Shown here: positions 9,461 to 58,547 of the stretch, piece after piece | Layout of the letters: each line of letters opens with the position of its first letter | How positions within the stretch are numbered: position 1 is the stretch's first letter | Assembly: GCA_041690595.1 (NCBI GenBank) | Contig: JAWLHB010000004.1 | Location: 62,001 to 126,000, forward strand | Length of the DNA stretch: 64,000 nt | Direction: 5' to 3' | DNA from: Lentisphaeria bacterium | Lineage (GTDB): Bacteria > Verrucomicrobiota > Lentisphaeria > JABSQK01 > JAWLHB01 | Notes under the pieces: model-generated | The model's database searches: none | Seen by the model: only the letters and a program-made list of their open reading frames with translations | Told to the model about the DNA's origin: nothing | Position numbers and translations under genes: made by a program

Positions 9461-9472
9461 ACGAGCCACATC

Positions 9473-9802
9473 ATGATCCCCCCCATCATGCCTTCCAGCA
9501 TCCCCATCGAGCCCACCGCTGGCACGAACTCTGCGGCTGCTCAGGACAAGGAAGATGTCGCTCTTCGCCAAGCCTGCCTGCAGTTTGAAGAAGTCTTCAC
9601 CGCCACTCTTCTCAAGAAGGGGTTGACGCAGGCAGCCGAAGCATGGGGCGACGAGGAGGAAGGCGCCAATACCGCCTACAAGGAAATGGCTTTCGAGCAG
9701 ATGGCCCAACACCTGGGCGGCATGCACCTCCTCGGCCTCGCCGACACACTCTATTCGCAGATCAAACAGTCCGGATCGAACCTCGGGGGAGATGATCGAT
9801 GA
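9473..9802 (+). CDS. flgJ: Short rod-binding FlgJ (no muramidase domain)
   Basis: LRQACLQFEEVF, LGLADTLYSQ; follows flgI. Confidence 0.75.
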   Translation: MIPPIMPSSIPIEPTAGTNSAAAQDKEDVALRQACLQFEEVFTATLLKKGLTQAAEAWGDEEEGANTAYKEMAFEQMAQHLGGMHLLGLADTLYSQIKQSGSNLGGDDR

Positions 9803-11649: not shown

Positions 11650-11823
11650 ATGGGCACCAAGGACAAACGCAGCAAGAGCGCCCTGCCAGGTAATGGCTGG
11701 GTGCGACAGGCAGCCATCGAGCTGACTGTGCTTGGACGACGCTATCTCGTCGCCATGCGCACCAATGAGGAAGCTCTCGCTTCCACCGGCGACGAAAAGC
11801 GCCGGCAGACCCAGACCTCATAG
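11650..11823 (+). CDS. 57-aa small protein not in the ORF track
   Basis: AAGGAGG RBS 9 nt upstream; MGTKDKRSKSALPGNGWVRQAAIELTVLGRRYLVAMRTNEEALASTGDEKRRQTQTS; fills the gap after flgK. Confidence 0.55.
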   Translation: MGTKDKRSKSALPGNGWVRQAAIELTVLGRRYLVAMRTNEEALASTGDEKRRQTQTS

Positions 11824-11844
11824 CCTAAGCAGGAGCTACCGACG

Positions 11845-12972
11845 ATGACCAGCTTCCCACAATCCATTCATGGCCAGAGAGTGGCCGGCAGTATGGTGCC
11901 GCTATGCGCCACCATCGAGGCCACCCTCGCCCACATGGATCGCGAGGCTGCACTGGTTGTCGACGACGATGGACGGCTCCGCGGCCTCGTGACCGACGGT
12001 GATTTGCGCCGGGCCTTTCTGCGCGGCGCGGAGCTGTCCGCCCCAGTTTGCGACATCATGACCTCACACCCCTTCTCCCTGCCGATGGGGACTCCACCGG
12101 AGCAGATCCGCCGGGAGATGGTCGCCCGCGGCATCCGCCACCTGCCGATCCTGGACAAGGATGACCGACCGGTCGCTCTCCACCTGCTCAAGGACTACCT
12201 CGGCGAACTCGACGCTGCCGGCGCTGTCGTCATGGCCGGCGGTCAGGGGACACGCCTGCGGCCACTCACCCTCGACACCCCCAAGCCTCTCCTGCGCATC
12301 GGCGATCGCCCCATCCTCGATACCATTCTCGAAGGTCTCCGCAACCATGGCGTTCAGGACGTCATGCTCACCGTCAACTATCTGGGCGAGCAGATCAAGC
12401 AGCACGTCGGGGACGGCCAGAGCTATGGAATGCGCATCGGCTACGTGGAAGAAGAGCAGCAGATGGGCACCGCCGGCGCGCTGGCACTCCTCGAACCACG
12501 CCCTGTTGCCGCCTTCATCATCATGAACGGCGACCTCTTCACCGAGCTTGACTATCGCTCCTTCGTCCGCTTTCACCGCACCGATGGTAACGATCTCACC
12601 ATGTGCGTTCGCCGCCACATCTCGCAGATACCCTATGGGGTGGTCACCCTGAGCGCGGAGAACGACCAGGTTTGCAGCCTGGTCGAGAAACCCGAACAAC
12701 AGCACCTGGTCAACGCCGGCATCTACATGGTCGAACCTCACGTTGTCGACCTCGTCCCCAAAGGCGAACCCTTCGATATGGTGCGACTGGTCCATGCCTG
12801 CCTGGCCAACGGGCTGCGCGTGGGCGCCTTCCCCATCCTCGAATATTGGTGCGACATCGGGCAGCACCAGGACATGCAGGCCGCCCGCGCTCACTGGCGC
12901 GAACAGGCCACCCGCGCCGTTAACCTGGCCGCGGCCGACTCCGCCGCCCATACCGTTCTACAAGAGGCTTGA
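11845..12972 (+). CDS. CBS-pair sugar-phosphate nucleotidyltransferase (LegX/PtmE-like)
   Basis: GLVTDGDLRR CBS motif; MAGGQGTRLRPLT..PKPL, NAGIY, YWCDIG. Confidence 0.88.
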   Translation: MTSFPQSIHGQRVAGSMVPLCATIEATLAHMDREAALVVDDDGRLRGLVTDGDLRRAFLRGAELSAPVCDIMTSHPFSLPMGTPPEQIRREMVARGIRHLPILDKDDRPVALHLLKDYLGELDAAGAVVMAGGQGTRLRPLTLDTPKPLLRIGDRPILDTILEGLRNHGVQDVMLTVNYLGEQIKQHVGDGQSYGMRIGYVEEEQQMGTAGALALLEPRPVAAFIIMNGDLFTELDYRSFVRFHRTDGNDLTMCVRRHISQIPYGVVTLSAENDQVCSLVEKPEQQHLVNAGIYMVEPHVVDLVPKGEPFDMVRLVHACLANGLRVGAFPILEYWCDIGQHQDMQAARAHWREQATRAVNLAAADSAAHTVLQEA

Positions 12973-14967: not shown

Positions 14968-16481
14968 CAGCGGAACCATCCTCGTTTGCGTTTGCTGGAT
15001 TCGGACTCGTCAGCATCTTCCGCGACCGGGCTGGCGGCGGCCTTGGCGGCGCCCAGCTTGCCGGAGATGGCGGTATCCTGAATATTGGCTTGGGCGGTGG
15101 CTTCGCTGATCCGGCCCTCCTTGAAGAGGCGGAAAATGGCATCATCCATGGTGCACATGCCCTGCGCCACGCCCGTCTGCATGATCGACCGCAACTGGTG
15201 CATCTTGTTCTCGCGGATGACGTTCGCGACAGCAATCGTGTTGATCAACAACTCCTCGGCCAGGACGACCGTGCCGTCGATGGCGGGAAGCATGCGCTGA
15301 CAGATGACGCCGCGAAGGCTCTCGGCAGTCATCGAACGGATCTGCTGCTGCTGCTCCGGCGGAAAAACGTCCAGAAGGCGGCCGAGCGTGGTGGCGGCAT
15401 CGCGCGTGTGCAGGGTGCCGATGACGAGGTGACCCGTTTCGGCGGCGGTGATGGCCATCTCGATGGTCTCCAGATCGCGCAGCTCGCCGATGATGATGAT
15501 GTCCGGGTCTTCGCGCAGCGCGGCCTTGAGCGCCGAGGCAAAGCTGTCGGTATGCCCGCCAACCTCACGTTGCGTCACGTTGCACTTCTTGGAATACTGG
15601 ATGATCTCCAGCGGATCTTCCACCGTGATGATGTGCTGGCTGCGCTCGACGTTGATGAAGTCGACCAGGGCGGCGAGGGTGGTCGTCTTGCCGCAGCCGA
15701 GGGGGCCGGTGACCAGGATGAGGCCGTTGTGGTGCGCAAGGAGCTTGCGGATGATCTTCGCGTTGCTGAAGCCGAGCTCCTCGAGCGGGCGCACGTGGTC
15801 GGGGATGATGCGGTAGGTGCCCGCGGCCCCCTCCTTATGCATCAGCAGGTTGATCCGGTACCGCTCGTCGGGACCGAGGGCACAGGCAAAATCGAAGTCC
15901 TGCTTGCGGGTAAAGGTGGCCCGCTGTTCGTCGTCGAGGAGAGCGGTGTTGAGCAACACGGCATGCTCGGGATCGAGGGGAGAGTCTGACAGGTAGACCA
16001 CGCGCATGTTCTGCCGAAGAAAAGGACGGGCACCGGCGGAGAGGTGCAGGTCGCTGGCCCCGGCGGCGCGTGCGGCACGCAGCATCCGGGTGATGGCTTC
16101 GGCGGCCTCCGCCAAATCCCGTAGATCGAGTTGGTCGAAGTCAGGCATGTCAGCCGTGGGTGCGGCCTGACGGCGAACCATCACCTGGTGGACGGTGACG
16201 GAGCCGACATCGTCGTCGTCGTCATCATCGACGGGCTTTGTATCCATGGCGAGGATATCGAGCGGGGGCACTTCGCCGCTTTCGCCCTTGCGATAGGCGA
16301 GGTTGACAAGATCCTGGACCACTTGCGCATCGTCGACGAGGTCGTGGTCGATGAGAGCCTGGGCAAAGCTCAGCAGGTCGGCATCCGGGCCGAGGACCCG
16401 GGCGATCTGTCGGCAGGTGGGCCCATCGACAACACCGAGGCGAACGGCTTCATAGCAGAACCATTGCAGATGTGGGGTCAC
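14967..16481 (-). CDS. pilT: PilT/PilU-family ATPase with about 130-aa N-terminal extension
   Basis: GPLGCGKTT, LREDPD, AETGHLVIGTLHT; GTG start overlapping the kinase stop; poly-Asp linker. Confidence 0.88.
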   Translation of the reverse strand: MTPHLQWFCYEAVRLGVVDGPTCRQIARVLGPDADLLSFAQALIDHDLVDDAQVVQDLVNLAYRKGESGEVPPLDILAMDTKPVDDDDDDDVGSVTVHQVMVRRQAAPTADMPDFDQLDLRDLAEAAEAITRMLRAARAAGASDLHLSAGARPFLRQNMRVVYLSDSPLDPEHAVLLNTALLDDEQRATFTRKQDFDFACALGPDERYRINLLMHKEGAAGTYRIIPDHVRPLEELGFSNAKIIRKLLAHHNGLILVTGPLGCGKTTTLAALVDFINVERSQHIITVEDPLEIIQYSKKCNVTQREVGGHTDSFASALKAALREDPDIIIIGELRDLETIEMAITAAETGHLVIGTLHTRDAATTLGRLLDVFPPEQQQQIRSMTAESLRGVICQRMLPAIDGTVVLAEELLINTIAVANVIRENKMHQLRSIMQTGVAQGMCTMDDAIFRLFKEGRISEATAQANIQDTAISGKLGAAKAAASPVAEDADESESSKRKRGWFR

Positions 16482-17509
16482 TCGGGCAACTCCGTAAAGA
16501 GGGTCATGGCGATCGGAGCAGCCTTCTTGGGCAACTCCGGCAGGGAGAGGGTCATGATGCGTTTCGGCCGATAGAGGAAGGCGAACTCCTCGCGCATGTA
16601 GCTTTCGAGGCTCTGGCTGGTGGGGCCATAGCCATCTTTGTAGATGGCATACTCGAGGTCCCGGGCCAGCTCGGCCGTCTTGAGGTAGCGCTGATTGGCA
16701 TCGAGAGCAAGGCACCGCTGGAGGATGGCCTTCAGATCCTCGGCAAGGTCCCCGGGAAGGAGGCTCCAGTCGACCCGCCCTTCGGCAGCTTGCTCGATCA
16801 TGGTCTCGCTCGTCTCGTCGGCGCGCATCTGCTTGCCGGCCAGAAGCTCGAAGAGGAGAGCGCCAAGAGAGTAGAGGTCGCTGCGATGGTCGGCAGGTTC
16901 CCGGCGAGCCTGTTCGGGAGACATGTAGGGAGCCTTGCCAGCAAGGAGGCGGCGCTTGCTGCTGAGAATGTTGCCGGCGACCAGAGCAATGCCGAAGTCG
17001 GTGAGCTTGGGCAGCCCCTCGGTGGTGATGAGGACGTTGCCCGGGCAGACGTCGCGGTGCACGATGTGCATGGGCTTGCCGGCGGGATCGTTGCGGGTGT
17101 GGGCGTAGTTGAGGGCGCGCGCGATCTTGCTGGCAATGAAGATGGCGAGCTGCCGGGGCAGTGGCTTGCGCAGCACCTTGTGGGTGCGCACAAACTCGTG
17201 CAGTGAGAGGCCGTTGACGTACTCCATCACCATGTAATAGCCATCGGGGGTACGCCCCAACTGGTAGATCTGCACGATGTTCTCATGCACCAGATTGGCT
17301 ACCAGTTTGGCCTCCTGGACAAAAAGATCGACAAAGGTGCCGCTGTCCGCCAGGTCGGGAAGGATCGTCTTCAGGGCGACGGTCTTCTGGAAGCCGCTGG
17401 CCCCCTCCTGAATCGCTTCATAGACGGAGCCCATGCCGCCATCCGCTATCTTGCGCAGAATGCGGAAGCGAAACTCGTCGATAACTGCCTGAATTTGCCC
17501 ACTGCTCAT
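16478..17509 (-). CDS. Cytoplasmic Hanks-type Ser/Thr protein kinase
   Basis: GGMGSVY, VALK, HRDVCPGN, TDFG, YMSPEQ, SDLYSLG; no TM segment. Confidence 0.92.
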   Translation of the reverse strand: MSSGQIQAVIDEFRFRILRKIADGGMGSVYEAIQEGASGFQKTVALKTILPDLADSGTFVDLFVQEAKLVANLVHENIVQIYQLGRTPDGYYMVMEYVNGLSLHEFVRTHKVLRKPLPRQLAIFIASKIARALNYAHTRNDPAGKPMHIVHRDVCPGNVLITTEGLPKLTDFGIALVAGNILSSKRRLLAGKAPYMSPEQARREPADHRSDLYSLGALLFELLAGKQMRADETSETMIEQAAEGRVDWSLLPGDLAEDLKAILQRCLALDANQRYLKTAELARDLEYAIYKDGYGPTSQSLESYMREEFAFLYRPKRIMTLSLPELPKKAAPIAMTLFTELPE

Positions 17510-39615: not shown

Positions 39616-40425
39616 TCATGCGGATTTGCGGCGCTTGGGCTTGTCTGCCTTGCTCTTCTCCAGGCTCTCCCTGAGGGCCTGCATGAGATTGATGACCGGC
39701 GGACCTTCTTCCTGATGCACCGTGGCGACGGCGGAGACGTCTTCACCTTCGGCCTTCGCTTCGATCAGCTCCTCGACTTTCTTGCGGTATGTGTCTTCGT
39801 ACTGCTCGGGGGCAAATGCTTCCGTGAGGGATTCGATGAGCTGTTTGGCCATCTTGATCTCCTTGTCCGTGAGCTTCACATCCCCCGGCAGATCCCCAAG
39901 ATCCTCGGCCTCCTGAACTTCGTCGGCATAGTTCATGATGTGCAGAACCATGACGCCATCCTTCGGGCGCAGGGTGACGAGGTGCTGGCGCTCTCGCATG
40001 ACAAACTGGCCGATGGCGACGCGGCCGCTCTCTCGCATGGCGCGCTCGAGCAGGGCATACGCCTTGGCCCCGCCCTTGCCGGGAACGATGTAATAGCAAC
40101 GATCCCAGTAGATGGGATCCACCTCCTGAATGTCGATGAAGGCCTCCAGATCGATGGTATCCCCTTTCTCCGGCTTGATCTGATCGAGTTCGTCCTGCTG
40201 GACGATGACGTACTGATCGGGGGCGATCTCGACGCCGCGGGCCGTCTCCCCGAAATCGTACTCCTTGCCGTTCTCCGGGCAATACAGCTTGCGGCGGAGC
40301 CGACAGTTACCCTCCGGGCTGAGCATGTGAAAGTTCACGCGTTGTTGCCGTACGGCCGTCATCAGCTTGACGGGAAAGGTGACCAGGCCAAAGCTGATGC
40401 TACCTGTCCAGATGGAATGTGCCAT
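39616..40425 (-). CDS. ku: NHEJ DNA end-binding protein Ku
   Basis: SIWTGSISFGLV..PVKL, VINLMQALRESL. Confidence 0.95.
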   Translation of the reverse strand: MAHSIWTGSISFGLVTFPVKLMTAVRQQRVNFHMLSPEGNCRLRRKLYCPENGKEYDFGETARGVEIAPDQYVIVQQDELDQIKPEKGDTIDLEAFIDIQEVDPIYWDRCYYIVPGKGGAKAYALLERAMRESGRVAIGQFVMRERQHLVTLRPKDGVMVLHIMNYADEVQEAEDLGDLPGDVKLTDKEIKMAKQLIESLTEAFAPEQYEDTYRKKVEELIEAKAEGEDVSAVATVHQEEGPPVINLMQALRESLEKSKADKPKRRKSA

Positions 40426-40449
40426 GATAGGATCTCCTGATGGTGAGAG

Positions 40450-43023
40450 TCAAGCGATGCCCGTCGCCTGTTTCATCTTCCTGGTGATGGATTGGCGCAG
40501 GGAAAAGAAGCCTTCCCACGGGTCTGTCTTGATTGCACTGAGGCGCCGGCGGACATCGGGAACGCTGAAACTGTTGGGTAGCAGGTCGGCGTCAAGCTCG
40601 TCCCAGGTGACTGGAATCGCGACCGGCGCACCTTCCCGAGCCCGGGTCGAGTAGGAGCTGACGGCAGTGGCGCTGTGGCTGTTGCGCTGAAAATCGATGT
40701 AGATCCGCCCCTCTCGCTGCTTCTTGCTCATGTTGGCGGTGAAGCGGTCGCGATGATCGCGGGCCATCTGCGTGGCGATCGCTCCGGTGAAGGCCTTCGC
40801 CTCGTCCCAGCTCTGGCGGCGAGTAAGCGGGATGACCACGTGGATGCCCTTGCCACCCGAAAGGCGGGCGAAGCTGACAAGCCCCATCCCCGCCAGGCGA
40901 TCCCGCAGCTCGCGGGCGGCGGAGACGATCTCCTCCCACTCGATCTGCTCTCCCGGATCGAAATCGAAGATGAGGCGGTCGGGTTTGTCGGGTTGATCGG
41001 CGGTGCATCCCCACGGATGCAGTTCAAGAGCGCCGAACTGGATCAGGGTGATCAGACCGGCCAAGTCGTCGATGACGATGTACTCCTTGGGATCGCTCTT
41101 GCCGGCGATGTGGACGCCGCGAACCGGCGGCGGAAGCGTCTCCCCCACATGCCGCTGATAGAAGCAGTTTTTGCCACGACCAGATGGGCAGCGAACGAGG
41201 CTGACCGGTCGACCGACGAGGTGGGGCAGGATCCAGTCTGAGATCTCCGCGTAGTATTCGGCCAGATCCTGCTTGGTGAGTCCCATTTCAGGAAAGAGCA
41301 CACGATCCGGGCTGGAGAGGTTGACGCCGGCGATCTGGACGCCCTTCTTCTTGCGCTGGTTCATGGTAACCTGCTTTGGCGGCGTAGTACCGGCCGATGC
41401 CTTGTCGTCCGCCGGCTCGACGGTTTTGTCGGTGAGAGCGGGTTTTTCGCGGATGATGCTTTCGGGAGGTTTGTCCGCGCGCAGCCCTTTGAAGGAGGGA
41501 TGACGGAGCCGTCCATCGCCAGTCCATTCGGTGAATTCGACTTCGCAGACGAGCTTCGGCGTCACCCAGCGACCGGAGCGCTGCACCGCTTTCGGCAGAT
41601 CGATGAAGGGCGGCGACTTGCGCTCGATACCGTGCAGCTTGTTCGCCAGCTCTTCGAGAAGACGATCACTGAAGCCGGTACCGACGCCGCCACAGAAGCG
41701 CAGCTCCTCACCATCGTAGACGCCGACCAGCAGCGCGCCGAAGCCAAGGCGGGATCCTTCCGGCTCCGTGAAGCCCCCGATCACGAACTCCTGCCGGTGC
41801 ACGCACTTGACCTTGAGCCAGTTGCGGCTGCGTCGCCCGATGTAGGGTGCATCCGCCTTCTTGCAGATGATCCCTTCCAGATGATGCTCGCACGCTTGCT
41901 CATGAAACTCCGCTCCCTGGCCGACGATATGATCGAGATAACGGATATGCCCCGTTGCCTGGACGCCGAGAATGCTCCGCAGAAGCTGCTTGCGCTGGAG
42001 CTGCGGGCTCTTCCGGAGATCGTGGCCGGCGTAGTACAGGATGTCGAAGACGTAATAGACGACGGAGGAGGTGCCGCCGTCGCGGAGGAGATTCTGCAGC
42101 GCCTGGAAGTCGGTGGTGCCGTCCGGGCGCAAGACCACGGCCTCGCCATCAAAGATGGCATCTTCCAGGTCCAGCCCCTCCAGAGCGCGCCGCGGGTCGG
42201 TGAAGCGGGCTGTCCAGTCCTTCGCGTTGCGGGTCAGCAGGCGCACCTTGCCGTCTCGGATGTGAGCGACGAGGCGATAGCCGTCGAGCTTCATCTCGTG
42301 AATCCACTGGTCGCCGTCGGGGACGAGATCCACCAGGGTGGCAAGCTGCGGGCTGACCTCCTTCGGCATGGCGGCGCGGCGGGCGTTGGGCAGCGCGGAA
42401 GGTTCGGGTGCAGCCATCGGTGGCTCGTCCCCCCGCGCCTCGCCTTCCTGCCAGACGGAATCGGCATGACGGGTGATCTGCTTCATGCCGCGCCCGGTGA
42501 GAACGCTGCGGTCGTTAGCGTCGAGAAAGCCCTCCGCATCGGGATCCGCGATATCGTCGTGTTCCTTGATGAGGAGCCAGTTCTTGTCGTCTTCGCTCTG
42601 TTTCATCTGCACCAGAGCCCAGTTGCCCCGCATCTTTTCGCCCTCCAGGCGAAAGGAGAGTTTGCCCTTTCGCAAGCCCTTGTGCGGGTCGTCGTTCGGA
42701 GCCCAGGTGCCGCGATCCCAGAGCATGACGGTGCCGCCGCCGTACTCTCCGGCGGGGATGATGCCCTCGAAATCGCCATAGTCCAGCGGATGATCTTCCA
42801 CGGCGACGGCGAGGCGCTTTTCGCCGGGGTCCAGGCTGGGCCCCTTCGGCACCGCCCAGCTCTTCAAGACGCCATCCAGTTCCAGGCGAAAGTCGTAATG
42901 CAGATTTCGCGCCGCATGCTTCTGAACGACAAAGAGATTGCCGCCGGAGTCTGGGCGTTCGTTGCCGGCAGGCTCCGGGGTCTTGGCAAAATCGCGTTTT
43001 CGATGATAGTCTTCCAGTGGCAT
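40450..43023 (-). CDS. ligD: NHEJ DNA ligase D (phosphoesterase-ligase-polymerase)
   Basis: KRDFAKTPEP, HYDFRLE, EMKLDGYR, RLRHPSFKGLR, SGGKGIHV. Confidence 0.96.
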   Translation of the reverse strand: MPLEDYHRKRDFAKTPEPAGNERPDSGGNLFVVQKHAARNLHYDFRLELDGVLKSWAVPKGPSLDPGEKRLAVAVEDHPLDYGDFEGIIPAGEYGGGTVMLWDRGTWAPNDDPHKGLRKGKLSFRLEGEKMRGNWALVQMKQSEDDKNWLLIKEHDDIADPDAEGFLDANDRSVLTGRGMKQITRHADSVWQEGEARGDEPPMAAPEPSALPNARRAAMPKEVSPQLATLVDLVPDGDQWIHEMKLDGYRLVAHIRDGKVRLLTRNAKDWTARFTDPRRALEGLDLEDAIFDGEAVVLRPDGTTDFQALQNLLRDGGTSSVVYYVFDILYYAGHDLRKSPQLQRKQLLRSILGVQATGHIRYLDHIVGQGAEFHEQACEHHLEGIICKKADAPYIGRRSRNWLKVKCVHRQEFVIGGFTEPEGSRLGFGALLVGVYDGEELRFCGGVGTGFSDRLLEELANKLHGIERKSPPFIDLPKAVQRSGRWVTPKLVCEVEFTEWTGDGRLRHPSFKGLRADKPPESIIREKPALTDKTVEPADDKASAGTTPPKQVTMNQRKKKGVQIAGVNLSSPDRVLFPEMGLTKQDLAEYYAEISDWILPHLVGRPVSLVRCPSGRGKNCFYQRHVGETLPPPVRGVHIAGKSDPKEYIVIDDLAGLITLIQFGALELHPWGCTADQPDKPDRLIFDFDPGEQIEWEEIVSAARELRDRLAGMGLVSFARLSGGKGIHVVIPLTRRQSWDEAKAFTGAIATQMARDHRDRFTANMSKKQREGRIYIDFQRNSHSATAVSSYSTRAREGAPVAIPVTWDELDADLLPNSFSVPDVRRRLSAIKTDPWEGFFSLRQSITRKMKQATGIA

Positions 43024-43885: not shown

Positions 43886-45235
43886 TCACGCCTGCGCCTC
43901 GATCTCATGGTCGATGCGGCTCTGTTGCTCGTGCGACAGGGCGGGTAGTATACGGCGAACGACGGCTTTCTCGACCGCCTGGCGGAAGGCGTGGCTCTGC
44001 ACGAGATCGCGGGCGGTTACCATATTGGCCAGATCTTCCGCGAGATTCTCCACGTTGAACTGTCGGGGACGTTGCAGCCGCACCTGCTCAAAGAGCGATT
44101 CCTGCTTCTGCCACGCGAGCCAGAGGCGCAGGCAGGCGCTCTCGCTCTCGTCCAGAGCCGCTGCCTTGGTGGCGAGGCGGGCATTGAGCTGGCGAAACAT
44201 GATCTGGAGGGCACGTCCGCTCGGCACGACGGTGCTGTCGAAGAGGGCTTCGCCCCGCGTATTGGTCATGCGATAGATCTCGCCCACCTTGAGGGCGATG
44301 AAACGCAGGATCGCGTCGATGGGCTCAAGCACCTCGGCGCGCAGCCAGTCGGGCTTGCTGTGAGGAAGCGTCGGGTCGAACTGCATGACGGCGCGCGGGC
44401 CGACCGCCGGATTGACGCTTTCCTCTCCGAGCGACGGGCGGGGCATCATCAGCATGGGAAAGGCGGCCAGATCGATGACCTCGTCCGCCTGCGAGATGTT
44501 GCGCATGATGGAGACATCGATGCGGGCGATATCCTGAATATCGGAGGTGCCGATAAAGGGGTCGGCGCTCCGGGCATTGAAATGCCAGACAAAGGGGACA
44601 ATCCCCAGAGGGTTGGCGCCGAGGGCGACACAGCGATAGCGTCCTTGCTCATCGCGCTCCCACAGTTCCCACCGCTCCCGCGTCCAGCACCGGATCGTGC
44701 CATCGGCCTCCCGCAGCTTCACATACTCGAGGCGAGGCCGATGATGCTGGTCGCGGCCGTGACGCCAGTCGAGTATGTTGGTCGGCAGGTAGATCGCCAG
44801 GTAGGGATGAATGCCGGCGCGCAGCTCATCCTCGCGGCTTCGCGCTTCGCCTGGCGCCTTGGTGACGAGGATGCCGACATGGCCCAGGACGCTCGCATAT
44901 TGCTGCGCTTCGTGCCAGAAGAGGTCGTAGTCGGTGCCGAGCAGGTCGATGTCCTTCATGAAGGCATGGAAGAGCGCATCGTCCGCGAGGCGGCCGAGTT
45001 CGCGGGTTGGCGGCTTCTCGAAGAGGTAATGGAGAAAGATCTCGACGATGGAGCGGGAATAGTTGAAGGAGATCGCCTGGCGCTGACGCTGGGCATGATT
45101 CTCGGGTGACTCGCGGATATGCCGCGGCAGGGCGCCGGCGTCGATGAGCGCCTGCGTCCCCTGCCAGGCGGCGAGCAGGAATTTCCAGTCGGAGAGGTGC
45201 CGACGGTAGAGGGGATGGGTGGTTTCGATGTCCAT
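43886..45235 (-). CDS. Phage portal protein (SPP1 gp6/DUF4055-like)
   Basis: 449 aa; THPLY...W, ES.E....R...A..FNY, ILDW, NPLGIVPFV, SGRALQ. Confidence 0.8.
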   Translation of the reverse strand: MDIETTHPLYRRHLSDWKFLLAAWQGTQALIDAGALPRHIRESPENHAQRQRQAISFNYSRSIVEIFLHYLFEKPPTRELGRLADDALFHAFMKDIDLLGTDYDLFWHEAQQYASVLGHVGILVTKAPGEARSREDELRAGIHPYLAIYLPTNILDWRHGRDQHHRPRLEYVKLREADGTIRCWTRERWELWERDEQGRYRCVALGANPLGIVPFVWHFNARSADPFIGTSDIQDIARIDVSIMRNISQADEVIDLAAFPMLMMPRPSLGEESVNPAVGPRAVMQFDPTLPHSKPDWLRAEVLEPIDAILRFIALKVGEIYRMTNTRGEALFDSTVVPSGRALQIMFRQLNARLATKAAALDESESACLRLWLAWQKQESLFEQVRLQRPRQFNVENLAEDLANMVTARDLVQSHAFRQAVEKAVVRRILPALSHEQQSRIDHEIEAQA

Positions 45236-45255: not shown

Positions 45256-46104
45256 TCAGGCGCGGAGCCAGCGCATGGCGCCGCCATGTTTTTCCGGTGC
45301 CCAGCGCAGGGGCTGGCCGTTGGTATCGGCGATGGGCGGCACACGAAGGAGGATCCGGGTGATCTCCCAGAAGTCGCGGCCGGTTGCATCGCGCACAGTC
45401 TCGATGCTCTGATCGATCCCCCGCCAGACGCCCGCGGCCGTGGCATCCGGGAGATGGAAGCGGGTGGGAATGCAGGCGGGGCTGCCATCGGTGACTCCGC
45501 CAAAATCGAGATAGCGGCTGAGGAAGTTGGCGCGGGCGTGAAAGACGATGGTTGACACTTCGCAGCGGGCACTCTGTTGATGCATCTGCCACGCTGGGGT
45601 GTGGGTAAAGGGAGAGGCCGCCGGAGGCTGCTGCGCCGCGGCCGGCCAGTCGAGGAGCCATGTCGGGTCCGCGGGATCGCGCTGAATGGGGGCATGCCCC
45701 GGAACGCCGCTGCCGAGATTGACATGCTCGGCGCTCCACGGCGAGCCATCCGTCGGGCGCGGCGGGAGAGGTTGCACCCCCAGTACCGCCGACGAGAAGA
45801 GAAAATCGCGGCGGCTGAAACTGATGTGGTAGAGGGAGCGAAGGTTCTCGCGGTCGAAGGAGATGCCGACGGCGATACTGGGTCGGGCGGTGACGCTGAC
45901 GTAATCGACGTGCGGCGCAAAGGCGGTCACGGCGACCTTGTCGACGATCCATCCCGGTACCAGCAGGTCGGCGGCATCGCCGCGATGGGGGCGGAACTCG
46001 CGGTCGGCGGCGGCCATCCGGAAGCGCGCCTGGGCATAGGTGCCCTGAGCATCTTCGTGAAGGTCGACATTATCGATAAGCTGCAGGCAGGTCCAGTCGG
46101 CCAT
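45256..46104 (-). CDS. Hypothetical protein, possibly tail/baseplate component
   Basis: 282 aa beta-rich ORF in the cassette, GGAG RBS. Confidence 0.6.
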   Translation of the reverse strand: MADWTCLQLIDNVDLHEDAQGTYAQARFRMAAADREFRPHRGDAADLLVPGWIVDKVAVTAFAPHVDYVSVTARPSIAVGISFDRENLRSLYHISFSRRDFLFSSAVLGVQPLPPRPTDGSPWSAEHVNLGSGVPGHAPIQRDPADPTWLLDWPAAAQQPPAASPFTHTPAWQMHQQSARCEVSTIVFHARANFLSRYLDFGGVTDGSPACIPTRFHLPDATAAGVWRGIDQSIETVRDATGRDFWEITRILLRVPPIADTNGQPLRWAPEKHGGAMRWLRA

Positions 46105-46127: not shown

Positions 46128-46418
46128 TTATTCATCGAGGAGGAAATGGGCGAGGGGCCGAAAGAGTTCGGCAAGCTCGCGCAGGTGCTGATTGGCGAGC
46201 CTGGTTTCGGCCTTGAGCTGGCGCAGCTCGTCGAGGATGGCATCCGATGGGGTGGCGGCCCCTTCGGTGATGGTTGGATCATGGGTTGCTCCTTCTTGTT
46301 TCGGTTTGCCGCCGGCGGCCTGCGCCGTGCCGCTGAAGGAGGCTTCCAGCTCGGCAAGCTGTTGACGGGCCTGATCGGCCGCCAGTTGAATGTCGATGGT
46401 AAGTGTTTGTTCACTCAT
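46128..46418 (-). CDS. 96-aa protein resembling a collapsed tape-measure protein
   Basis: N-terminal LTIDIQLAADQARQQL and C-terminal LDELRQL..ANQHLREL helices joined by a short linker. Confidence 0.45.
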   Translation of the reverse strand: MSEQTLTIDIQLAADQARQQLAELEASFSGTAQAAGGKPKQEGATHDPTITEGAATPSDAILDELRQLKAETRLANQHLRELAELFRPLAHFLLDE

Positions 46419-46761
46419 GGCGTTTGTTCAGGTTGGCGGTGGTGCGAAGCTGGGTACTGATCTCGTTGGGAATGCAGGGGCAGCGATGGATGGCGGTGCA
46501 GGCGTCGTGAAGGGCATCGGCGATGCGCTGAAAGGCCTGGCTGTTGGTGTCGAGGGCGGTGGCGGCGTGGTTGAGCGCGGAGCGCAGGTCGCCGCGATAA
46601 TCGCCCTCCAGGCTCTCGATGCGGGCAATCAGCGACTGCTCGCGACGGTAGCCGCGAGTGATGGCCTCCTTGCTCAGCCAGAAGATGTGCCAGAGCAGGA
46701 CGGCACAAAGCGCGATCCACGGGCCGAAGCTGTCGGCAAGGCGGGTGAGGTGGTCAAGCAT
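46411..46761 (-). CDS. Holin-like single-TM coiled-coil protein
   Basis: FGPWIALCAVLLWHIFW TM then REQSLIARIESLE; overlaps both neighbours. Confidence 0.55.
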   Translation of the reverse strand: MLDHLTRLADSFGPWIALCAVLLWHIFWLSKEAITRGYRREQSLIARIESLEGDYRGDLRSALNHAATALDTNSQAFQRIADALHDACTAIHRCPCIPNEISTQLRTTANLNKRHE

Positions 46762-47521
46762 GGGCGGCTCCCTCCATGGTGTCGATGTAGGCGTCGATGC
46801 CGTGGTAGCGTTTGAAGAGACTCCGGCGCTTCATCCAGGTGAGGGCTCCAAGGGTTCGCCAGGCGAGCCGCAGTTGGCGGAGCCGGCCAACATGCCGATA
46901 ACCGAGTGTGCAGGGGGCCACCCACGGGACGGGATCCGGCCCGTTGACGATACGCATGGATGGGATCACCGCGTCAAAGGCGCGCCGATAGCGCCGCTGG
47001 GCGACGCGTGGAGCCCCGAAGGTCACCATCCGGACAGGCACCAGGCCGTCGAAGTGCAGGTAGAGATCGTAAGCGGCGGGAACGGCCTCCCCACCCCCTT
47101 TGCTGTGACCGGTGACGGTGATGGAAGCCGGCTGCCCCATATCCTCGAGCAGACGCTGACGCAGCGCCTGATAGCCGTGCAGGAAGCCGGCGTGGAGCGG
47201 CATGCCATAGTGATGGCATGGCCGACAGTCCAGGTTGGCCAGCCAGTCGATGGGGCTGTCGCTGCCACGGAAGACCAGGACGAGGTGCTCCCCGGGGCGA
47301 CGGTAGAGCTGCGCCTGCGCGTCGAGATGAACGCGGCGCTGGCAGGTAGGGCAGGCATAGTCGCCATAGTAGTCATACGCATCGACAAGGCCGGGCGCCT
47401 GGGCACGGATGATCCACGGATTGCTGTACGAGAGGCGGGCGAGCCGCGCGAGATCCAGGTTGGACAGCTCGGGCAGCGCGAGCAGCTGCGCAAGTGCCGG
47501 GGTTTGAGCGGATTGATGCAT
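46754..47521 (-). CDS. Class 3 lipase (alpha/beta hydrolase)
   Basis: VFRGSD, LHAGF, TGHSKGG, TFGAPRV, DPVP, YRHVG, HGIDAY: complete Ser-Asp-His set. Confidence 0.9.
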   Translation of the reverse strand: MHQSAQTPALAQLLALPELSNLDLARLARLSYSNPWIIRAQAPGLVDAYDYYGDYACPTCQRRVHLDAQAQLYRRPGEHLVLVFRGSDSPIDWLANLDCRPCHHYGMPLHAGFLHGYQALRQRLLEDMGQPASITVTGHSKGGGEAVPAAYDLYLHFDGLVPVRMVTFGAPRVAQRRYRRAFDAVIPSMRIVNGPDPVPWVAPCTLGYRHVGRLRQLRLAWRTLGALTWMKRRSLFKRYHGIDAYIDTMEGAAHA

Positions 47522-47557: not shown

Positions 47558-47905
47558 TCAGGAAACGATGGGGTCGCCGGCGAAGTCGAGAATGGTGGTG
47601 CGGGTGCGGTCACTCCATGAGGCGGAGACCAACCCGGTGAAGGTGGCAATGACGGTGCTGCCCCGCCGGAGGGTGATGGTGTCGGTCGTGGCCGGCAGTG
47701 TATCCAGGTGGGTGTGATCGCCACGAAGCTCGAGGCGCGCGCGGATATCCACGGCCTGCCGGTCGTGATGAATGCGGCCGTCGGCGGTGGTGGTGGCGAT
47801 GTCTCGCCCGCGCTCCTGGTAGGTGCCGCTGCCCGGCAGGACCAGTTCCGCGGGGAGATGGTGGTCGCCAATGAGGGCGTTGTCGAAGGGAAGCAGTGAT
47901 GGCAT
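47558..47905 (-). CDS. Small beta-rich hypothetical virion protein
   Basis: 115 aa from MPSLLPFD, GGAGG RBS. Confidence 0.6.
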   Translation of the reverse strand: MPSLLPFDNALIGDHHLPAELVLPGSGTYQERGRDIATTTADGRIHHDRQAVDIRARLELRGDHTHLDTLPATTDTITLRRGSTVIATFTGLVSASWSDRTRTTILDFAGDPIVS

Positions 47906-47925: not shown

Positions 47926-48261
47926 TCAGGGCCGGGAGCCCTTCCAGGTGATGGTGGCAATCTGAAGAGCATCGCCTTGAATGCTCAGGTCGACGAGGGC
48001 GCCGACGGCGGTTGGCGGATCGCCGGAGACGGTGACATCGCCGGGACCGACGGGAGAGCGCAGCATCCGCAGGCTGGCGAAGCTTTGGTCGCCCTCGTCG
48101 CGCACCAGGCACTGAAGGGAACCCTGGCGCAGAAGGCCGGCCCGGACGTTGGGTACCTGTCGTCCCCCACGGTCGTCGTGGCCACCTCCATGTCGAAGGG
48201 TTCCGGGAATCGGGTTTATCATGAGTGTTTGCTCACCATCGCGTGCAAAGATGACTGTCAT
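47926..48261 (-). CDS. Small beta-rich hypothetical virion protein (possibly tail-tube-like)
   Basis: 111 aa, GGAG RBS, directly after the terminator-like gene. Confidence 0.55.
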   Translation of the reverse strand: MTVIFARDGEQTLMINPIPGTLRHGGGHDDRGGRQVPNVRAGLLRQGSLQCLVRDEGDQSFASLRMLRSPVGPGDVTVSGDPPTAVGALVDLSIQGDALQIATITWKGSRP

Positions 48262-48288: not shown

Positions 48289-48699
48289 TCAGGGAAGGAG
48301 GACGTCGAAGCTGACGAGGTAGAGGGTGTTGGTGGCGCCGAGATCAAGGGGCATGTCGCCCTGATACTGCCAGATGGCGTCGCGGTAGGAGAAGTCATCG
48401 AGTCTGGCGATGGATTCATCCAGGAGGGCGCGCGCATTGGCGGCCCCAGTCTCGGCCTGGGCATGGGAGGTGGCGATGAGCAGTTGCAGGCTGAGGCGGC
48501 GTCGCGGGTGCTGCTGACGGCGGCCGCCCTGGTAGATGACGATGACGGCGGGCAGTTGCGTCGCGTTCAGGCGCTGATAGAGGGCCTGGAGGGAGCTGCC
48601 GGAGAAGGTGAGCACCTGCCAATCCGGGTACGCGCGCAGCCGCTCGGCGGTCTGTTGCAGGATGGTCTCGGTCGATTCGAGGTAGTCGGTCAGCGGCAT
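48289..48699 (-). CDS. Tail terminator-like protein
   Basis: 136 aa from MPLTDY; LPAVIVIYQG, ALLDESIARLDDF, YLVSF; position after neck gene. Confidence 0.6.
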   Translation of the reverse strand: MPLTDYLESTETILQQTAERLRAYPDWQVLTFSGSSLQALYQRLNATQLPAVIVIYQGGRRQQHPRRRLSLQLLIATSHAQAETGAANARALLDESIARLDDFSYRDAIWQYQGDMPLDLGATNTLYLVSFDVLLP

Positions 48700-48719: not shown

Positions 48720-49139
48720 CTAGGAGGTAAGAAGCTCGCGAAGATCGTCGAGGGTGGCGGGTGAATCGTCCGGGGCGAAGCCGAAGAAGGGACGAGTGGG
48801 CTGGTTGGCGGCGGCTTTGAAGGCGGAGTGGGAGTCGAGGAAGGTGAGGGAGACCCCGTCGCCGGTGAGGCGCGGGGCCATGGCGGCAAGCATGGCGCCG
48901 GTATGGAAGAGGTTGACGGCGGGAGAGGCGCCGGAGCGTTCCCGCTGCCGGCGCCAGGCCGGGGTATAGGGCCGAAACCGCTCTCCCGCGAGGCTGATGC
49001 CGGCGGCAGTGCGCCGCAGGATGCGCAGGCGCTGACGATCGGCAAGCTCGAGGAGGAGATCGGGGGCGGCAAGGCGATCCAGCAGCTGCTGGAGAGACTG
49101 ACCGGCGGCCTGACCGTCGATATGGAGGGGCGGCAGCAT
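48720..49139 (-). CDS. Virion morphogenesis / tail-completion (neck) protein
   Basis: G..F.PY...W, VNLFHTGAMLAAM, RPFFGF motifs. Confidence 0.72.
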   Translation of the reverse strand: MLPPLHIDGQAAGQSLQQLLDRLAAPDLLLELADRQRLRILRRTAAGISLAGERFRPYTPAWRRQRERSGASPAVNLFHTGAMLAAMAPRLTGDGVSLTFLDSHSAFKAAANQPTRPFFGFAPDDSPATLDDLRELLTS

Positions 49140-49141
49140 GA

Positions 49142-49588
49142 TCAGAGACGCTCCAGTATACGCGTTTCGAGCGGGCGGGCGGTCTCGGCCGGCGCGATGT
49201 TGGCGGAGCCGTCCCAGTCATAATCGAGACCGGCGGCAAGGACATCGGCTAGTTCAGCGGCGTAGCGAGCCTCCCAAGTGGCGGCGAGATGGTGAAAGGG
49301 CTCGTCGGGGTGTCCTTTGGCGAGATAGAGATAGACCAGGTGGAGCGCCTTGCAGGCAGCCAGCATAGTGAGCTGTTCGTCGGCATGCAGGAGGTTGGCT
49401 CTGGAGAAGGGGAGGTGATCGGGGTCGAGCCCGCGCTGGCGGGCGGCGGCACGGTACCAGCCAATGGTAAGCGCCCGGTCGACAATCCGGGTGGCTTCGG
49501 CGAGCTGATGGGGCCACGCGGTGGGGCCGAGCTGAAGGATCTCCGGGCGCAGCTTTTCGAGGTCCGAATCGGTGCAGTAGGTGCTCAT
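49142..49588 (-). CDS. Head-tail adaptor protein
   Basis: YCTDSDL N-terminus, EATRIVDRAL, Y..EL...LDYD; follows capsid gene. Confidence 0.7.
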   Translation of the reverse strand: MSTYCTDSDLEKLRPEILQLGPTAWPHQLAEATRIVDRALTIGWYRAAARQRGLDPDHLPFSRANLLHADEQLTMLAACKALHLVYLYLAKGHPDEPFHHLAATWEARYAAELADVLAAGLDYDWDGSANIAPAETARPLETRILERL

Positions 49589-49681: not shown

Positions 49682-50659
49682 TCAGGAGGTGTGGATCTCG
49701 ATCCCGCCGGCGTTCTTGACGTTGCTGGTCACGAGGGTCCAGTTGGCCGTGTCGCCCAGCTCGGCGTCACTGGGGTTGGGAGCGGCGGTGGAGAACTGGA
49801 AGCCCTTGACGCGCGCATTGAAGGCGTACTCTCCCTGGATGCGGAAGAGGAGCTGAGCCTTGCCGGTGATCATCTCCGCGGCGATGGTCTCTTCTTCGGA
49901 TTCGGTGACGACGAGTCCGTCGCGGGCGAAGCCGAGGGTATGGTAGGAGACTGGGTCGACACCATTGTCATGGCGCAGCGCATCGGCATCGGTGACGATG
50001 ACGGGGAGACCGAGCGTCTCGACGGTTCCGGCGCGGACGGTGAGGTTGGCAATGCCGGTGATGTTGTCCGCGAGCGACTGCTGCATGAGGTCGAAGTAGA
50101 CCTTGGAATGCATCACCCAGCAGACGATCCGCTGGGCGGCATCGCCGAGCCTGGCGAGGCCGCCGAGGAGGTGGCCGTGGGTCATGGTCGGCGTCTGCAG
50201 GGCGGTGGCGTCAAAGCGGAGCCGCGGATCCGTCTGAAACGCGGCGCGGGCGGCGAGGAGACCCGAATCCAGGAAGTTGAGGGTCTTTGCCTGTGCGACC
50301 ATGCGGCCGACGATGAGGGACATCTGCGCGGCGTCCATGCCGATCTTCTTGAAGGAATTGAGGGTCTGAGTGACGGGGCCGATGCGGCGGTCGAGCTTGA
50401 CGCCCACTTCCTCCCCCTGGGTGAGGGGCAGGTCATCGGCGTCGAGGAGGCTGCTCAGGTCGCGTCGGGAGACGAGGCCGACGATGGTATCGAAGAAGGC
50501 TTCCTTCTCGTACTGGCCGAGGAGTTCTTGCTGCACGAAGCGGATGCCGAAGTTGCTGGCCTCGTTGAAGGCGCGGATGGTACGGGCGAGCGCCTCGTAT
50601 TTGCCGAGCTGGTACTGGGCGTCCTGAAGGACGAAGTCGGATTGTTTGCCGATAGGCAT
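49682..50659 (-). CDS. Major capsid protein (HK97 fold expected)
   Basis: 325 aa; AFNEASNFGI, CWVMHSKVYFDL, LGLPVIVTD, IQGEYAFNARVKGF, NPSDAELGDTANW; AAGGAG RBS. Confidence 0.88.
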   Translation of the reverse strand: MPIGKQSDFVLQDAQYQLGKYEALARTIRAFNEASNFGIRFVQQELLGQYEKEAFFDTIVGLVSRRDLSSLLDADDLPLTQGEEVGVKLDRRIGPVTQTLNSFKKIGMDAAQMSLIVGRMVAQAKTLNFLDSGLLAARAAFQTDPRLRFDATALQTPTMTHGHLLGGLARLGDAAQRIVCWVMHSKVYFDLMQQSLADNITGIANLTVRAGTVETLGLPVIVTDADALRHDNGVDPVSYHTLGFARDGLVVTESEEETIAAEMITGKAQLLFRIQGEYAFNARVKGFQFSTAAPNPSDAELGDTANWTLVTSNVKNAGGIEIHTS

Positions 50660-50742: not shown

Positions 50743-51507
50743 TCAGCCGCGGGTATCGGCATCGATGAGCTGCCGCGCGGCCTGCATGCCGTGCTGGTCG
50801 ATGAAGCGCGCCTGTTCCTCGACATCCATCTGGCTCCATGGGCGGGAGTCCTCGGGATGGAGAGAGGCAGCGCCGCCGCCGGCGCCGCCGCCGCCGGGAT
50901 GGCCTGCCTTGAGCATGCGATCCCGATGAGGGTGGCGCTGGATGATCTGCTGGAGCGCCTCTTCGGGGTTGGCGTAGTCGCCGGGACGGGATGGAGACAT
51001 GATCGGTTGGCCGTCGACGCGAGCGATCGGCACGGGGCGGCCGTTGCGCTCTTCCACGTGGAAGTTCTGGCCGAAGTAGACGTAGGCCATCTCCGGCAAG
51101 AGAAGGGTCTGTTCACGCAGAAAGTCCGAGGTATCGAAGGCGGACTTGATGAGCAGATCGTGAATCTGGCTGTCGCGCTGGGCGATGGTCTCGTCGCGCT
51201 GTTGCAGGCGGCTGGTGTACTGCTCTTCGATGTGGCGGCGCACCTGTTCGGCCTCGCCGGCATCGATGAGGGACTTGTTGGCGAGGTCCTCGAGCTTGCG
51301 CAGCGCGTCATGGGCGGCGGCGGGTTCGATCTCCCCATAAGCGCTGAGGGCGGCGTTGAGTTCGCCAACGCGGGCAGAGAGCTGACTGATGGTGGCTTGC
51401 ATGGCGACGGGGTCGACGGCCAACTCGGAGCCGTCATCCTGAAGGTAGAGCGGAAGATCGTCGGCAGTGAGGACCGGGTGGCCAAGGTCATTACGTTTGA
51501 GTTTCAC
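50743..51507 (-). CDS. Capsid scaffolding protein (DUF6651-like)
   Basis: GTG start 6 nt after AAGGAG; MKLK..., LPLYLQDDGSE, LIDAGEAEQV, SRPGDYANPEEAL, Gly-rich tail. Confidence 0.8.
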   Translation of the reverse strand: MKLKRNDLGHPVLTADDLPLYLQDDGSELAVDPVAMQATISQLSARVGELNAALSAYGEIEPAAAHDALRKLEDLANKSLIDAGEAEQVRRHIEEQYTSRLQQRDETIAQRDSQIHDLLIKSAFDTSDFLREQTLLLPEMAYVYFGQNFHVEERNGRPVPIARVDGQPIMSPSRPGDYANPEEALQQIIQRHPHRDRMLKAGHPGGGGAGGGAASLHPEDSRPWSQMDVEEQARFIDQHGMQAARQLIDADTRG

Positions 51508-51539
51508 AGACATCTCCTTTTTCTTGTTAAGGTGCCAAT

Positions 51540-51567
51540 ACCATAGCACCAAAACTCGAAAAGTCAA
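51540..51567 (-). promoter_or_regulatory. Putative sigma70 promoter of the virion cassette
   Basis: TTGACT-N16-TATGGT with extended -10 TGn; palindrome ATAAC-N6-GTTAT just upstream (51575-51590). Confidence 0.5.
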
Positions 51568-51724
51568 GCCGGATATAACCAAAAAGTTATCACAGGTAAG
51601 GAAATTATGTCGGCACGGTGTGGGAGGGGTCTGGGGAGACGGGGAGTTGAAATCGCGGAGGCGACCGCTACTCTAATAGAGGAGTTCAGGCACGGCGTCC
51701 GCGGCCTGGCGCAAGGATGCAAGG

Positions 51725-57287: not shown

Positions 57288-58547
57288 CTATGACTGCAGG
57301 GTGGAATAGAGAGAAAGAGCGCGGAGGTTGACGGGGCCGTCCGCCTTGTCGATGCGCAGGCGCAGGGTGCCGAGAGGGACGGCCGGGAAGCGCACGATGG
57401 CCTTGTGCCCCACATTGGCCCCCTGAGCCAGAAGGATGCGCCCACCCGCCTCGCATTCGATGGTGAACTGGCGGATATGTTCCCCGGCGGTCAGCTCCTC
57501 CTCGATGACGAGGTGATCCACCAGGAGGCGTTGCGAGGCGGCGAAGGACCAGGTGGTGTCGGTGCGTTCGAAGTCATCGAGGGTGGCAACGGGATGGCTG
57601 AAGCGGCGACGGATCTCGGCGCCGAACTCCAGTAGGCGCGTGGCATCCGGTTCCGGCAGGAGCCCGTGCCGGTCGGGACCGATGTTGAGCAGCAGGTTGC
57701 AGCCGCGCCCGACGGAGAGGTAGTAGAGGCCCATCAGCTCGTCGACGCTCTTGACGGTATGGGTGTCGGCCTCTTCGAAGAACCAGTTCTGGAGGCGCAT
57801 GCGGCAGTCGCACTCGGCGGGGAGCCAGCGCGGCTCCACATCGACCGTCTCGAGGTTGTCGGTCTGGACGGAAAAGGGAACGGCGACGACGGTGTTCCAG
57901 CAGGGCTGGGGGGCGATGCCGGCCTCATTGCCGACCCACCGGAAGTCGGGGTCGCCCATGTTGAAGATGAGGATGTTGGGCTGCAGCCGGCGAATGGTGG
58001 CGATGATGCGGTTCCAGTCGTAGACGTGACCTTCGGAGCCGCAGCCATCGAACCAGAGGATGTCGATGTCGCCGTAGTTCTGGAGCAACTCGCTGATCTG
58101 GTTGATGAAGTGGTCATCGTACTGGTGGGGATGCTCGAAGATGGGGTTTCCCCATTCGGCGGGGGAGTAATAGATGCCGACGGCGAGTCGATGGGCGCGG
58201 CAGGCGTCGACGAAGTCGCGGACGACATCGCCTTTGCCGTCGCGCCAGGGCGTCTGGGAAACGGAATAGGAGGAGTAAGCGGATGGCCAGTTGGCAAAGC
58301 CGTCGTGATGCTTGGCAACGAAGACCATGTAGGCGGCGCCGGCCTCGGCAGCGGTCCTCGCCCACTGGTCGGCATCGAAGGCGGAGGGATTGAAGCCGTC
58401 GAGGGGCATGGGCTTGCCGTCCCAGTCGCGGTGTCCTTCAAAGAAGGTGCGAATGCCGAAGTGCAGGAAGATGCCGAACTCCCAATCCTGGTACTGCAGT
58501 TGCCTGGGGGTGGGGATGGCAGTAGAATGATAGTCCTTGGCGGGCAT
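57288..58547 (-). CDS. Alpha-L-fucosidase (GH29)
   Basis: FGIFLHFG, AKHHDGF, LWFDG, RWVGNE, SVGRGCNLLLN. Confidence 0.93.
   Translation of the reverse strand: MPAKDYHSTAIPTPRQLQYQDWEFGIFLHFGIRTFFEGHRDWDGKPMPLDGFNPSAFDADQWARTAAEAGAAYMVFVAKHHDGFANWPSAYSSYSVSQTPWRDGKGDVVRDFVDACRAHRLAVGIYYSPAEWGNPIFEHPHQYDDHFINQISELLQNYGDIDILWFDGCGSEGHVYDWNRIIATIRRLQPNILIFNMGDPDFRWVGNEAGIAPQPCWNTVVAVPFSVQTDNLETVDVEPRWLPAECDCRMRLQNWFFEEADTHTVKSVDELMGLYYLSVGRGCNLLLNIGPDRHGLLPEPDATRLLEFGAEIRRRFSHPVATLDDFERTDTTWSFAASQRLLVDHLVIEEELTAGEHIRQFTIECEAGGRILLAQGANVGHKAIVRFPAVPLGTLRLRIDKADGPVNLRALSLYSTLQS

Follow-up and report, generated by a model that had tools for sequence, protein, structure and literature searches.

The analysed DNA (the window, 64,000 nucleotides of contig JAWLHB010000004.1 of a Lentisphaeria bacterium, genome G000 below) contains a 7.7-kb cassette of head and short-tail phage genes, running on the minus strand from position 51513 down to 43886. 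Its 12 ORFs, all on the minus strand and each single-copy in the genome, occur in the order scaffold, capsid, adaptor, neck, terminator, orfA, orfB, lipase, single-transmembrane (TM) protein, orfC, orfD, and portal. The head scaffolding protein (50743-51513, 256 aa; phrog_206, E 2.5e-20; DUF6651, E 1e-13) and the major capsid protein (49682-50659, 325 aa; PF20036, Gp13-like, E 2e-72; phrog_247) are followed by three probable connector genes. First, a probable head-tail adaptor (49142-49588, 148 aa), for which no Pfam or PHROG match was found, is named by position, ORFs in the same position of related phages being 32-44% identical. Second, a probable virion morphogenesis or neck protein (48720-49139, 139 aa) has a weak PF05069 match (E 0.02) and homologs in related phages. 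Third, a probable tail terminator (48289-48699, 136 aa) is also named by position and is 25-32% identical to the ORFs preceding orfA in loci L052, L181, L184, and L187.

The remaining structural genes surround the lipase. The product of orfA (47926-48261, 111 aa) is, from its position, a probable tail-tube-type protein, and its homologs (37-55% identity) are always paired with orfB. The orfB product (47558-47905, 115 aa; AF2 pLDDT 83) has a tail-tube/Dit fold: its model aligned by VIA-align with middling Z scores of 7-8 to the tail tubes of 80alpha, monocin, Mu, and RcGTA, and tail-tube folds dominate the list. In the Atlas, orfB had weak matches at best (top 0.86), and three genome matches were found, in Victivallales, Lentisphaeria, and Clostridiales. 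The possibility that orfB is a hidden endolysin was rejected because of this fold. The orfC product (46128-46418, 96 aa) sits before orfD as the tape measure protein (TMP) does in L052, and is a probable tape-measure remnant, or miniature tape measure. Over its C-terminal half it can be aligned with the L052 TMP (746 aa, residues 709-741; 3 of 2000 shuffles as good), the BLASTP match being weak (E 0.088) and the N-terminal match not significant; a match of the C-terminal type was absent from the three other TMPs compared. The product of orfD (45256-46104, 282 aa), a post-TMP tail protein and by position a distal tail or hub protein, is 31% identical over 119 aa to that of the gene following the L052 TMP (E 2e-8). 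The portal (43886-45235, 449 aa; phrog_145, E 1e-56), 40% identical to the L052 portal and closest to P0026 (63%), is located at the operon end and not before the scaffold.

Going by names read from the sequence, a histidine kinase borders the cassette at one end, and at the other end come an unannotated ORF, LigD, and Ku. The Ku and LigD-like genes of non-homologous end joining (39616-43023, minus strand) lie 0.9 kb past the portal and have its orientation, which may be chance. Neither a terminase nor an integrase was found in the cassette, and no att-like boundary repeats were seen. The sequence occurs in four DNA sequencing runs of one study (share 0.07-0.11), and no RNA run with it was listed; reads over the cassette and its flanks are pieces of 150-265 bp, mostly of 96-100% identity, none of them spanning the cassette.

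The gene at 46754-47521 encodes a class-3 lipase of 255 aa, which matches Pfam Lipase_3 (PF01764; E 2e-20, 73.6 bits, curated cut-off 22) and the phrog_21992 esterase/lipase profile (E 8e-21). The preliminary description of this DNA had noted a complete catalytic set and no obvious signal peptide, and both observations hold. S140 in GHSKGG, D196 in DPVP, and the C-terminal H240 are invariant in an alignment of 14 rows, and the N-terminus is not hydrophobic, the best 19-residue Kyte-Doolittle (KD) mean being 0.88. The AF2 model (pLDDT 87.5) matched Rhizomucor lipase and Aspergillus feruloyl esterase in Foldseek (E 1e-11 to 8e-13), as well as class-3 lipases from giant viruses and uncultured phages, so that alignment, model, and structure search agree on a GxSxG nucleophile, a full triad, and an alpha/beta-hydrolase fold. 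Lipase_3 was the only Pfam family matched, and no cutinase occurs among the structural matches listed. Against its homolog in metagenome locus L083 dN/dS is about 0.3 (dN 0.43; dS 1.39, near saturation). In a quick tree, with all 59 rows kept and the careful search unfinished, the lipase falls into a clade of four rows (SH-aLRT 99); support is given for this clade and not for its deeper placement, so no donor is named. Lipase_3 proteins were found in 14 of the 350 class genomes, with no supported grouping with the window lipase. Across the four-member clade a CPxC hairpin (residues 57-60) and a third cysteine at 102 are invariant and form a possible metal site.

The lipase end is overlapped by 8 bp by the gene for a 116-aa protein (46411-46761) with one hydrophobic stretch (residues 11-29, KD 1.65) and a soluble C-terminal part. 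The preliminary description had called this ORF single-TM and holin-like; the overlap and the single TM segment stand, while the likeness to holins is weak. PF10960 (BhlA) scored below its cut-off of 22.6 bits both for this protein (E 0.06, 13.8 bits) and for its homolog P0179 (E 8e-4, 19.7 bits). BhlA/UviB holins (PF10960) likewise begin with a single TM helix and continue into a charged helical region, but the window protein has a longer C-terminal part, besides scoring below the Pfam cut-off. As a small protein with a TM helix encoded within a late operon, it may belong to the functional class of holins. Complex prediction for the lipase and the TM protein's soluble part gave a score of 0.00, which we count neither way.

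As stated in the preliminary description, no amidase, muramidase, or peptidase is recognizable: none of the 12 cassette ORFs matched a wall-hydrolase profile of Pfam or PHROG. Searches of the genome (97% complete) for endolysin families PF00959, PF13539, and PF01510 and for homologs of five endolysin queries gave no match; a search for the GH19 family matched no control genome and is uninformative. The orfD product may hide a cryptic hydrolase. A host devoid of peptidoglycan was considered and rejected, as the genome encodes four Mur ligases and two PBP transpeptidases, along with one SLT protein. With these genes in the host, an attack on the membrane may not suffice to free particles; a host hydrolase, an unrecognized enzyme, or incomplete lysis like that of the ghost cells of the Caulobacter gene transfer agent (GTA) would be required for release. 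According to the available part of PMC13236601, this agent, CcGTA, has no canonical holin-endolysin pair and leaves ghost cells, and the accessible text of PMC11361711 reports Lentisphaerae strains that release phages without lysis.

Among phages, L052 comes nearest to the window genes, and its own genes run neck, terS, terL, portal, gp7, scaffold, capsid, adaptor, terminator, orfA, orfB, glycosyltransferase, chaperone, 746-aa tape measure, and orfD. Set against this order, the cassette has no terminase, gp7, or chaperone, its portal is shifted to the end, and a 96-aa ORF replaces the tape measure. Seven distinct phage loci bear orfB (L052, L181-L185, and L187); two of them stop soon after orfB and two have an unclear order, and in the three with a clear downstream order (L052, L181, and L184) the slot of the lipase holds the tail chaperone, preceded in L052 by a glycosyltransferase moron. 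The "endolysin position" assigned earlier to the lipase was therefore not borne out, the corresponding slot in related phages belonging to a tail chaperone or moron. The structural operon of L052 carries three glycan-related morons (5752-7224, 9154-10131, and 11773-12474), namely a methyltransferase-GT47 fusion, a capsule-synthesis-like gene, and a DXD glycosyltransferase. No lipase was found within the sequenced extents of the seven orfB loci, nor in any of the capsid-, portal-, or orfB-related phage loci (sets of 80, 47, and 7), many of which are partial, with L052 recurring; scans of viral contigs with the lipase, and with a single portal sequence, gave no match.

The lipase is nevertheless not sporadic; a sporadic lipase, with a conventional endolysin in its place in homologous cassettes, had been named beforehand as an outcome that would refute the proposal, and this was not what was seen. 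Locus L083 keeps the order orfA-orfB-lipase (identities 55, 54, and 49%), and the nearest homologs in protein searches were P0002 for the lipase (55%) and P0179 for the TM protein (52%). These two proteins each come from a 1487-bp Logan contig, taken from the equal size to be the same one, so the lipase/TM pair is probably conserved in relatives whose lipases are 49-55% identical. The contigs of L083, P0002, and P0026 are 1.5-3.7 kb long and may belong to active phages.

More distant members of the family also recur in lysis cassettes. With the lipase profile, 51 metagenome loci were found and their neighbourhoods read by script, and hand-picked neighbours were scanned with Pfam (44 from 14 loci) and PHROGs (37). 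In three loci the lipase adjoins a confirmed endolysin or lies at most four genes from it: L088, with a phrog_873 endolysin plus a DUF6127 TM gene, and L098 and L113, with GH108 endolysins. Possible endolysins with no named profile match occur in L103, L114, and L116/L117. In the cultured Burkholderia phage BgManors32 (L209) the lipase gp42 is encoded in the lysis region, four genes after a chitinase-annotated endolysin. No report of class-3 lipases in endolysin-containing lysis cassettes of the L088, L098, L113, or BgManors32 type was found in the mostly open-access literature searched. Loci L105, L089, L092, L094, and L095 have the lipase near a small TM gene and no recognized endolysin; three of these contigs are shorter than 2 kb, L105 ends shortly after the lipase, and the hosts are unassigned. 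The lipase of cyanophage Cr-LKS4 lies outside any lysis context. The remaining loci, read by eye, hold host lipases, RHS-type proteins, and giant-virus or eukaryotic genes.

Across loci, lipases that accompany endolysins suggest that the family behaves like the mycobacteriophage enzyme LysB, a lipid-attacking companion of lysis. The window lipase would thus probably act, going by its sequence relatives, in a LysB-like membrane step of lysis and not as an endolysin substitute. Of the membrane-only release module proposed earlier, a lysis role of the lipase is more likely than not; a part as the sole lysis agent is not supported, the host having peptidoglycan genes and kin of the lipase accompanying endolysins.

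The same neighbourhoods bear on a different role, in which the element is maintained and the lipase is a moron or cargo, that is, an effector packaged, tail-bound, or exported through the holin, with the TM protein as exporter, anchor, or inhibitor. The glycosyltransferase moron in the L052 slot and the absence of a signal peptide would suit such a role, as would RHS-type proteins in several loci (L108, L109, L111, L119-L122, L129, L130, and L132, read by eye), which end in a GHSKGG lipase-like domain and are followed by N-terminally membrane-anchored, immunity-like ORFs. Single-domain GHSKGG lipases, however, occur in the lysis cassettes of several unrelated phages, and in L224 an unrelated PLA2-like ORF accompanies a small TM gene and a lipoprotein, as it does a lipoprotein in the prophage on contig C5 of G000, which makes the cargo role, in our judgment of these gene contexts, improbable.

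The C5 prophage (about 49000-95000; L190-L192) is apparently complete, lambdoid, and unrelated to the cassette; it encodes a serine recombinase, an amidoligase/GATase/GGACT trio, and a 1590-aa fibre with LamG repeats. Its PLA2-like ORF (57426-57878), unrelated to the lipase, has no Pfam match; in the Atlas it scores 0.91 against a cluster in which 13% of the members carry PF09056. No endolysin was recognized among the scanned tail-end genes of this prophage. In L224, a prophage of the class in genome G154, the PLA2-like ORF occurs twice with a TM gene and once with a lipoprotein; the tail-fibre, TM, and PLA2-like genes form an inverted duplication there (5577-6860 and 15586-17215, 98-99% identity).

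Terminase and replication genes lie elsewhere in the genome. The L052 TerL query gave a 40% match at G000:C2:166944-168263, which is the only PF03237 match in the genome; that this TerL resembles the one of the phage closest to the window genes was counted in favour of a GTA-like element. It belongs to a module (G000:C2:166944-170221; L189:9945-13222) in which a CI-like repressor with two HTHs and an S24 domain diverges from an acidic 131-aa ORF, TerS, and an intact TerL, with host genes around. The TerS has no HTH: it covers positions 52-129 of the 141 in the Pfam model, against 1-139 for the L052 TerS, and no frameshifted HTH remnant is visible upstream. About nine tandem 9-bp repeats lie just past the repressor gene (L189:13263-13379). 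A third module (G000:C20:82996-84640; L193), also among host genes, encodes a phage replication initiator and a DnaC-like loader (phrog_2514, E 3e-14; phrog_50, E 4e-12). A lambda-type origin has repeats within the initiator gene followed by an AT-rich tract, and the C20 initiator gene likewise holds internal 11-bp iteron-like repeats and then an AT-rich tract.

The three modules share a predicted operator/promoter box, an imperfect palindrome of the ATAAC-N6-GTTAT type, found upstream of the window scaffold (51573-51592, minus strand), at G000:C2:169214 before the terminase operon, and at G000:C20:84640 before the rep-DnaC genes. In the window it is directly followed by a sigma-70-like promoter match, TTGACT-16-TATGGT (51540-51567, minus strand), a consensus match only, the region having three such matches against 0.9 expected. 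For 20- and 22-mers around the window palindrome, the C2 site outranks every other non-self match in the 8.1 Mb, whereas 16- and 18-mers do not single it out; the box size was chosen after looking, and part of the match is a plain -10 element. A block-shuffle test confined to the upstream regions of the window and C2 gave no significance (49 of 500). The reciprocal search from the C2 site led to C20:84640, picked when the phage replication genes behind it were unknown, and in leave-one-out matrices each held-out box ranked first genome-wide after the two training sites. A fourth boxed locus was rejected (next matrix score 16.3, against 30.6-31.6 for the training sites), and so was the C5 prophage as the source of the box, no prophage site being among the top 25 matrix matches.

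The element does not have the form of an intact temperate prophage, contiguous and with an integrase, att sites, and full sets of tail and lysis genes; its modules lie on three contigs. PF00589 integrases were absent from C2, C4, and C20, all eight genome matches being elsewhere; serine recombinases were checked with one query. Queries from related phages found no homologs of the tail chaperone, gp7, or tail fibres in the genome, and tailed particles may consequently be unable to adsorb. Such losses would be expected of a recently grounded prophage scattered in undecayed pieces, whose lipase and TM genes are an inherited accessory lysis cassette that outlived its endolysin and fibres and is no longer under selection. 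The reduction of the tape measure to 96 aa, the usual company of endolysins for lipases of this type, and the absence of the window capsid from all 350 other class genomes, G000 being the sole genome of its family compared, are compatible with that history. On the other hand, all 18 genes of the three modules are open with catalytic motifs and host-like GC (0.57-0.69), host genes flank each module on its own contig, and the portal has been moved, not lost. Moreover, the box stands upstream of the scaffold, a mid-operon gene in L052, which implies rewiring. We therefore consider a relic rather unlikely.

A precedent within the class comes from another family, f7. Orthologs of the C2 repressor (29-41% identity, E<=1e-15) were found in 37 of 144 f7 genomes, and in 9 of 11 loci they head a fixed cassette of terS, portal, scaffold, capsid, adaptor, one more ORF, and terL; small ORFs were not called everywhere, and an integrase lies nearby in one locus. 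The intergenic regions of these loci have a conserved palindrome between the -35 and a TATATT -10, exactly the position of the G000 box. The f7 capsid (385 aa) is present, mostly single-copy, in 124 of the 144 genomes and absent from G000, which, having the CI ortholog, appears to use a similar regulator for a different set of phage structural genes. A distant portal was found in 123 of 144 f7 and 5 of 5 f32 genomes. The genes of the f7 system lie together in one genus and apart in others (L259-L266 in G300, G295, G309, G317, G281, G282, G307, and G304; L225 in G033; L223/L267/L269 in G020; L226/L271 in G349; L228/L270 in G241). In G020 unlinked capsid, portal, and terL genes lie at 0.57, 1.86, and 2.24 Mb, and an orphan portal sits beside a fabH-like gene in G020 and G349. 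The f7 head and packaging system is a strong candidate, judged from its gene content, for a GTA-like element. Since f7 kin are not independent, these counts show inheritance, not function.

The f7 cassettes that were laid out carry no lipase and are mostly head and packaging genes, and they keep a TerS with HTH-type similarity. These traits, together with the lack of receptor-binding genes among those found in G000 and the complete unrelated lambdoid prophage on C5, would also suit a split system kept for a role other than transfer, for example interference with or parasitism of incoming phages by diversion of capsid or terminase, or altruistic lysis; the lipase and holin-like protein would then kill the induced cell. 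In G000, though, the HTH-less TerS and the retained replication origin fit packaging of host DNA, and we regard such a role as quite improbable.

The lipase and TM protein may well be the release module of a domesticated, GTA-like phage split over three unlinked loci, a reading of the gene content that we hold to be evenly poised. The CI-like repressor from C2 would hold all three promoters off through the shared box, until cleavage by its S24 autoprotease, probably after DNA damage, relieved repression. Local replication would then start at the C20 origin, short-tailed heads would assemble, and a relaxed terminase would fill them with host DNA. The TM protein would lesion the inner membrane, the cytoplasmic lipase would hydrolyse membrane lipids, and the wall would be opened by a host hydrolase or an enzyme unrecognized here. 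More broadly, and quite tentatively, the class (probably Lentisphaeria, PVC group) may harbour an undescribed family of CI-controlled GTAs, of which G000 would have a three-locus form with one operator, amplification from a phage origin, and release by a holin-like protein and a phospholipase with no endolysin, class phages reaching the same lysis logic through an unrelated PLA2-like enzyme.

To our knowledge, demonstrated GTAs come from few lineages, and split ones escape prophage-centred scans. The candidate described here, with its three loci, predicted operator, HTH-less terminase, and origin, is directly testable, and the f7 capsid counts hint that a system of this sort is widespread and has been overlooked. 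If class-3 lipases recur in lysis cassettes outside the mycolata, the LysB idea would reach Gram-negative hosts as well, and endolysin-free release in a host that encodes peptidoglycan, if true, would be a new lysis route. Searches of mostly open-access literature found nothing on class 3 lipases in connection with phage, lysis, and the outer membrane together, or on Victivallis and gene transfer agents.

Among known lysis enzymes, mycobacteriophage LysB is likewise an alpha/beta-hydrolase with GxSxG and a Ser-Asp-His triad, acting from a lysis module on a lipid barrier beside an endolysin, according to the part of PMC6116114 available. LysB, however, is cutinase-like and cleaves mycolyl-arabinogalactan, whereas the window enzyme is a Lipase_3 protein of fungal-lipase fold in a host with no known mycolates; its neighbour is holin-like, endolysin neighbours being found for family members elsewhere, and no LysA-type endolysin was found beside it or among the genome families searched. 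The phage lipases of phrog_21992, such as BgManors32 gp42, share its family and motif, and gp42 is encoded in a lysis region; gp42 differs in having an endolysin four genes upstream and is about 32% identical, and the CPxC hairpin is specific to the window clade.

Among GTAs, RcGTA and CcGTA are similar in having an integrase-free head-tail cluster, and in G000 too the head and packaging genes lie among host genes with no integrase. The small terminase of RcGTA has no N-terminal HTH (PMC6854486, in the portion available), as is the case for the C2 TerS. They differ in capsid family and phylum and in having the terminase inside the core cluster. Release is by holin-endolysin in RcGTA and by LypABC in CcGTA (PMC13236601), and no lipase is mentioned for either in the accessible parts of these two papers. 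GTAs usually have no replication genes of their own, whereas G000 has rep-DnaC genes with iteron-like repeats behind the shared box on C20; a known exception is BaGTA of Bartonella. As described in the available part of bioRxiv 2024.11.20.624540, BaGTA also comprises unlinked capsid/packaging and phage-derived replication modules (the bgt cluster and the run-off replication locus) that are coordinated. Coordination there is by the antiterminator BrrG, while the predicted means in G000 are a CI-like repressor and the box common to the modules, and the lysis genes differ. In outline, the G000 element would thus resemble BaGTA.
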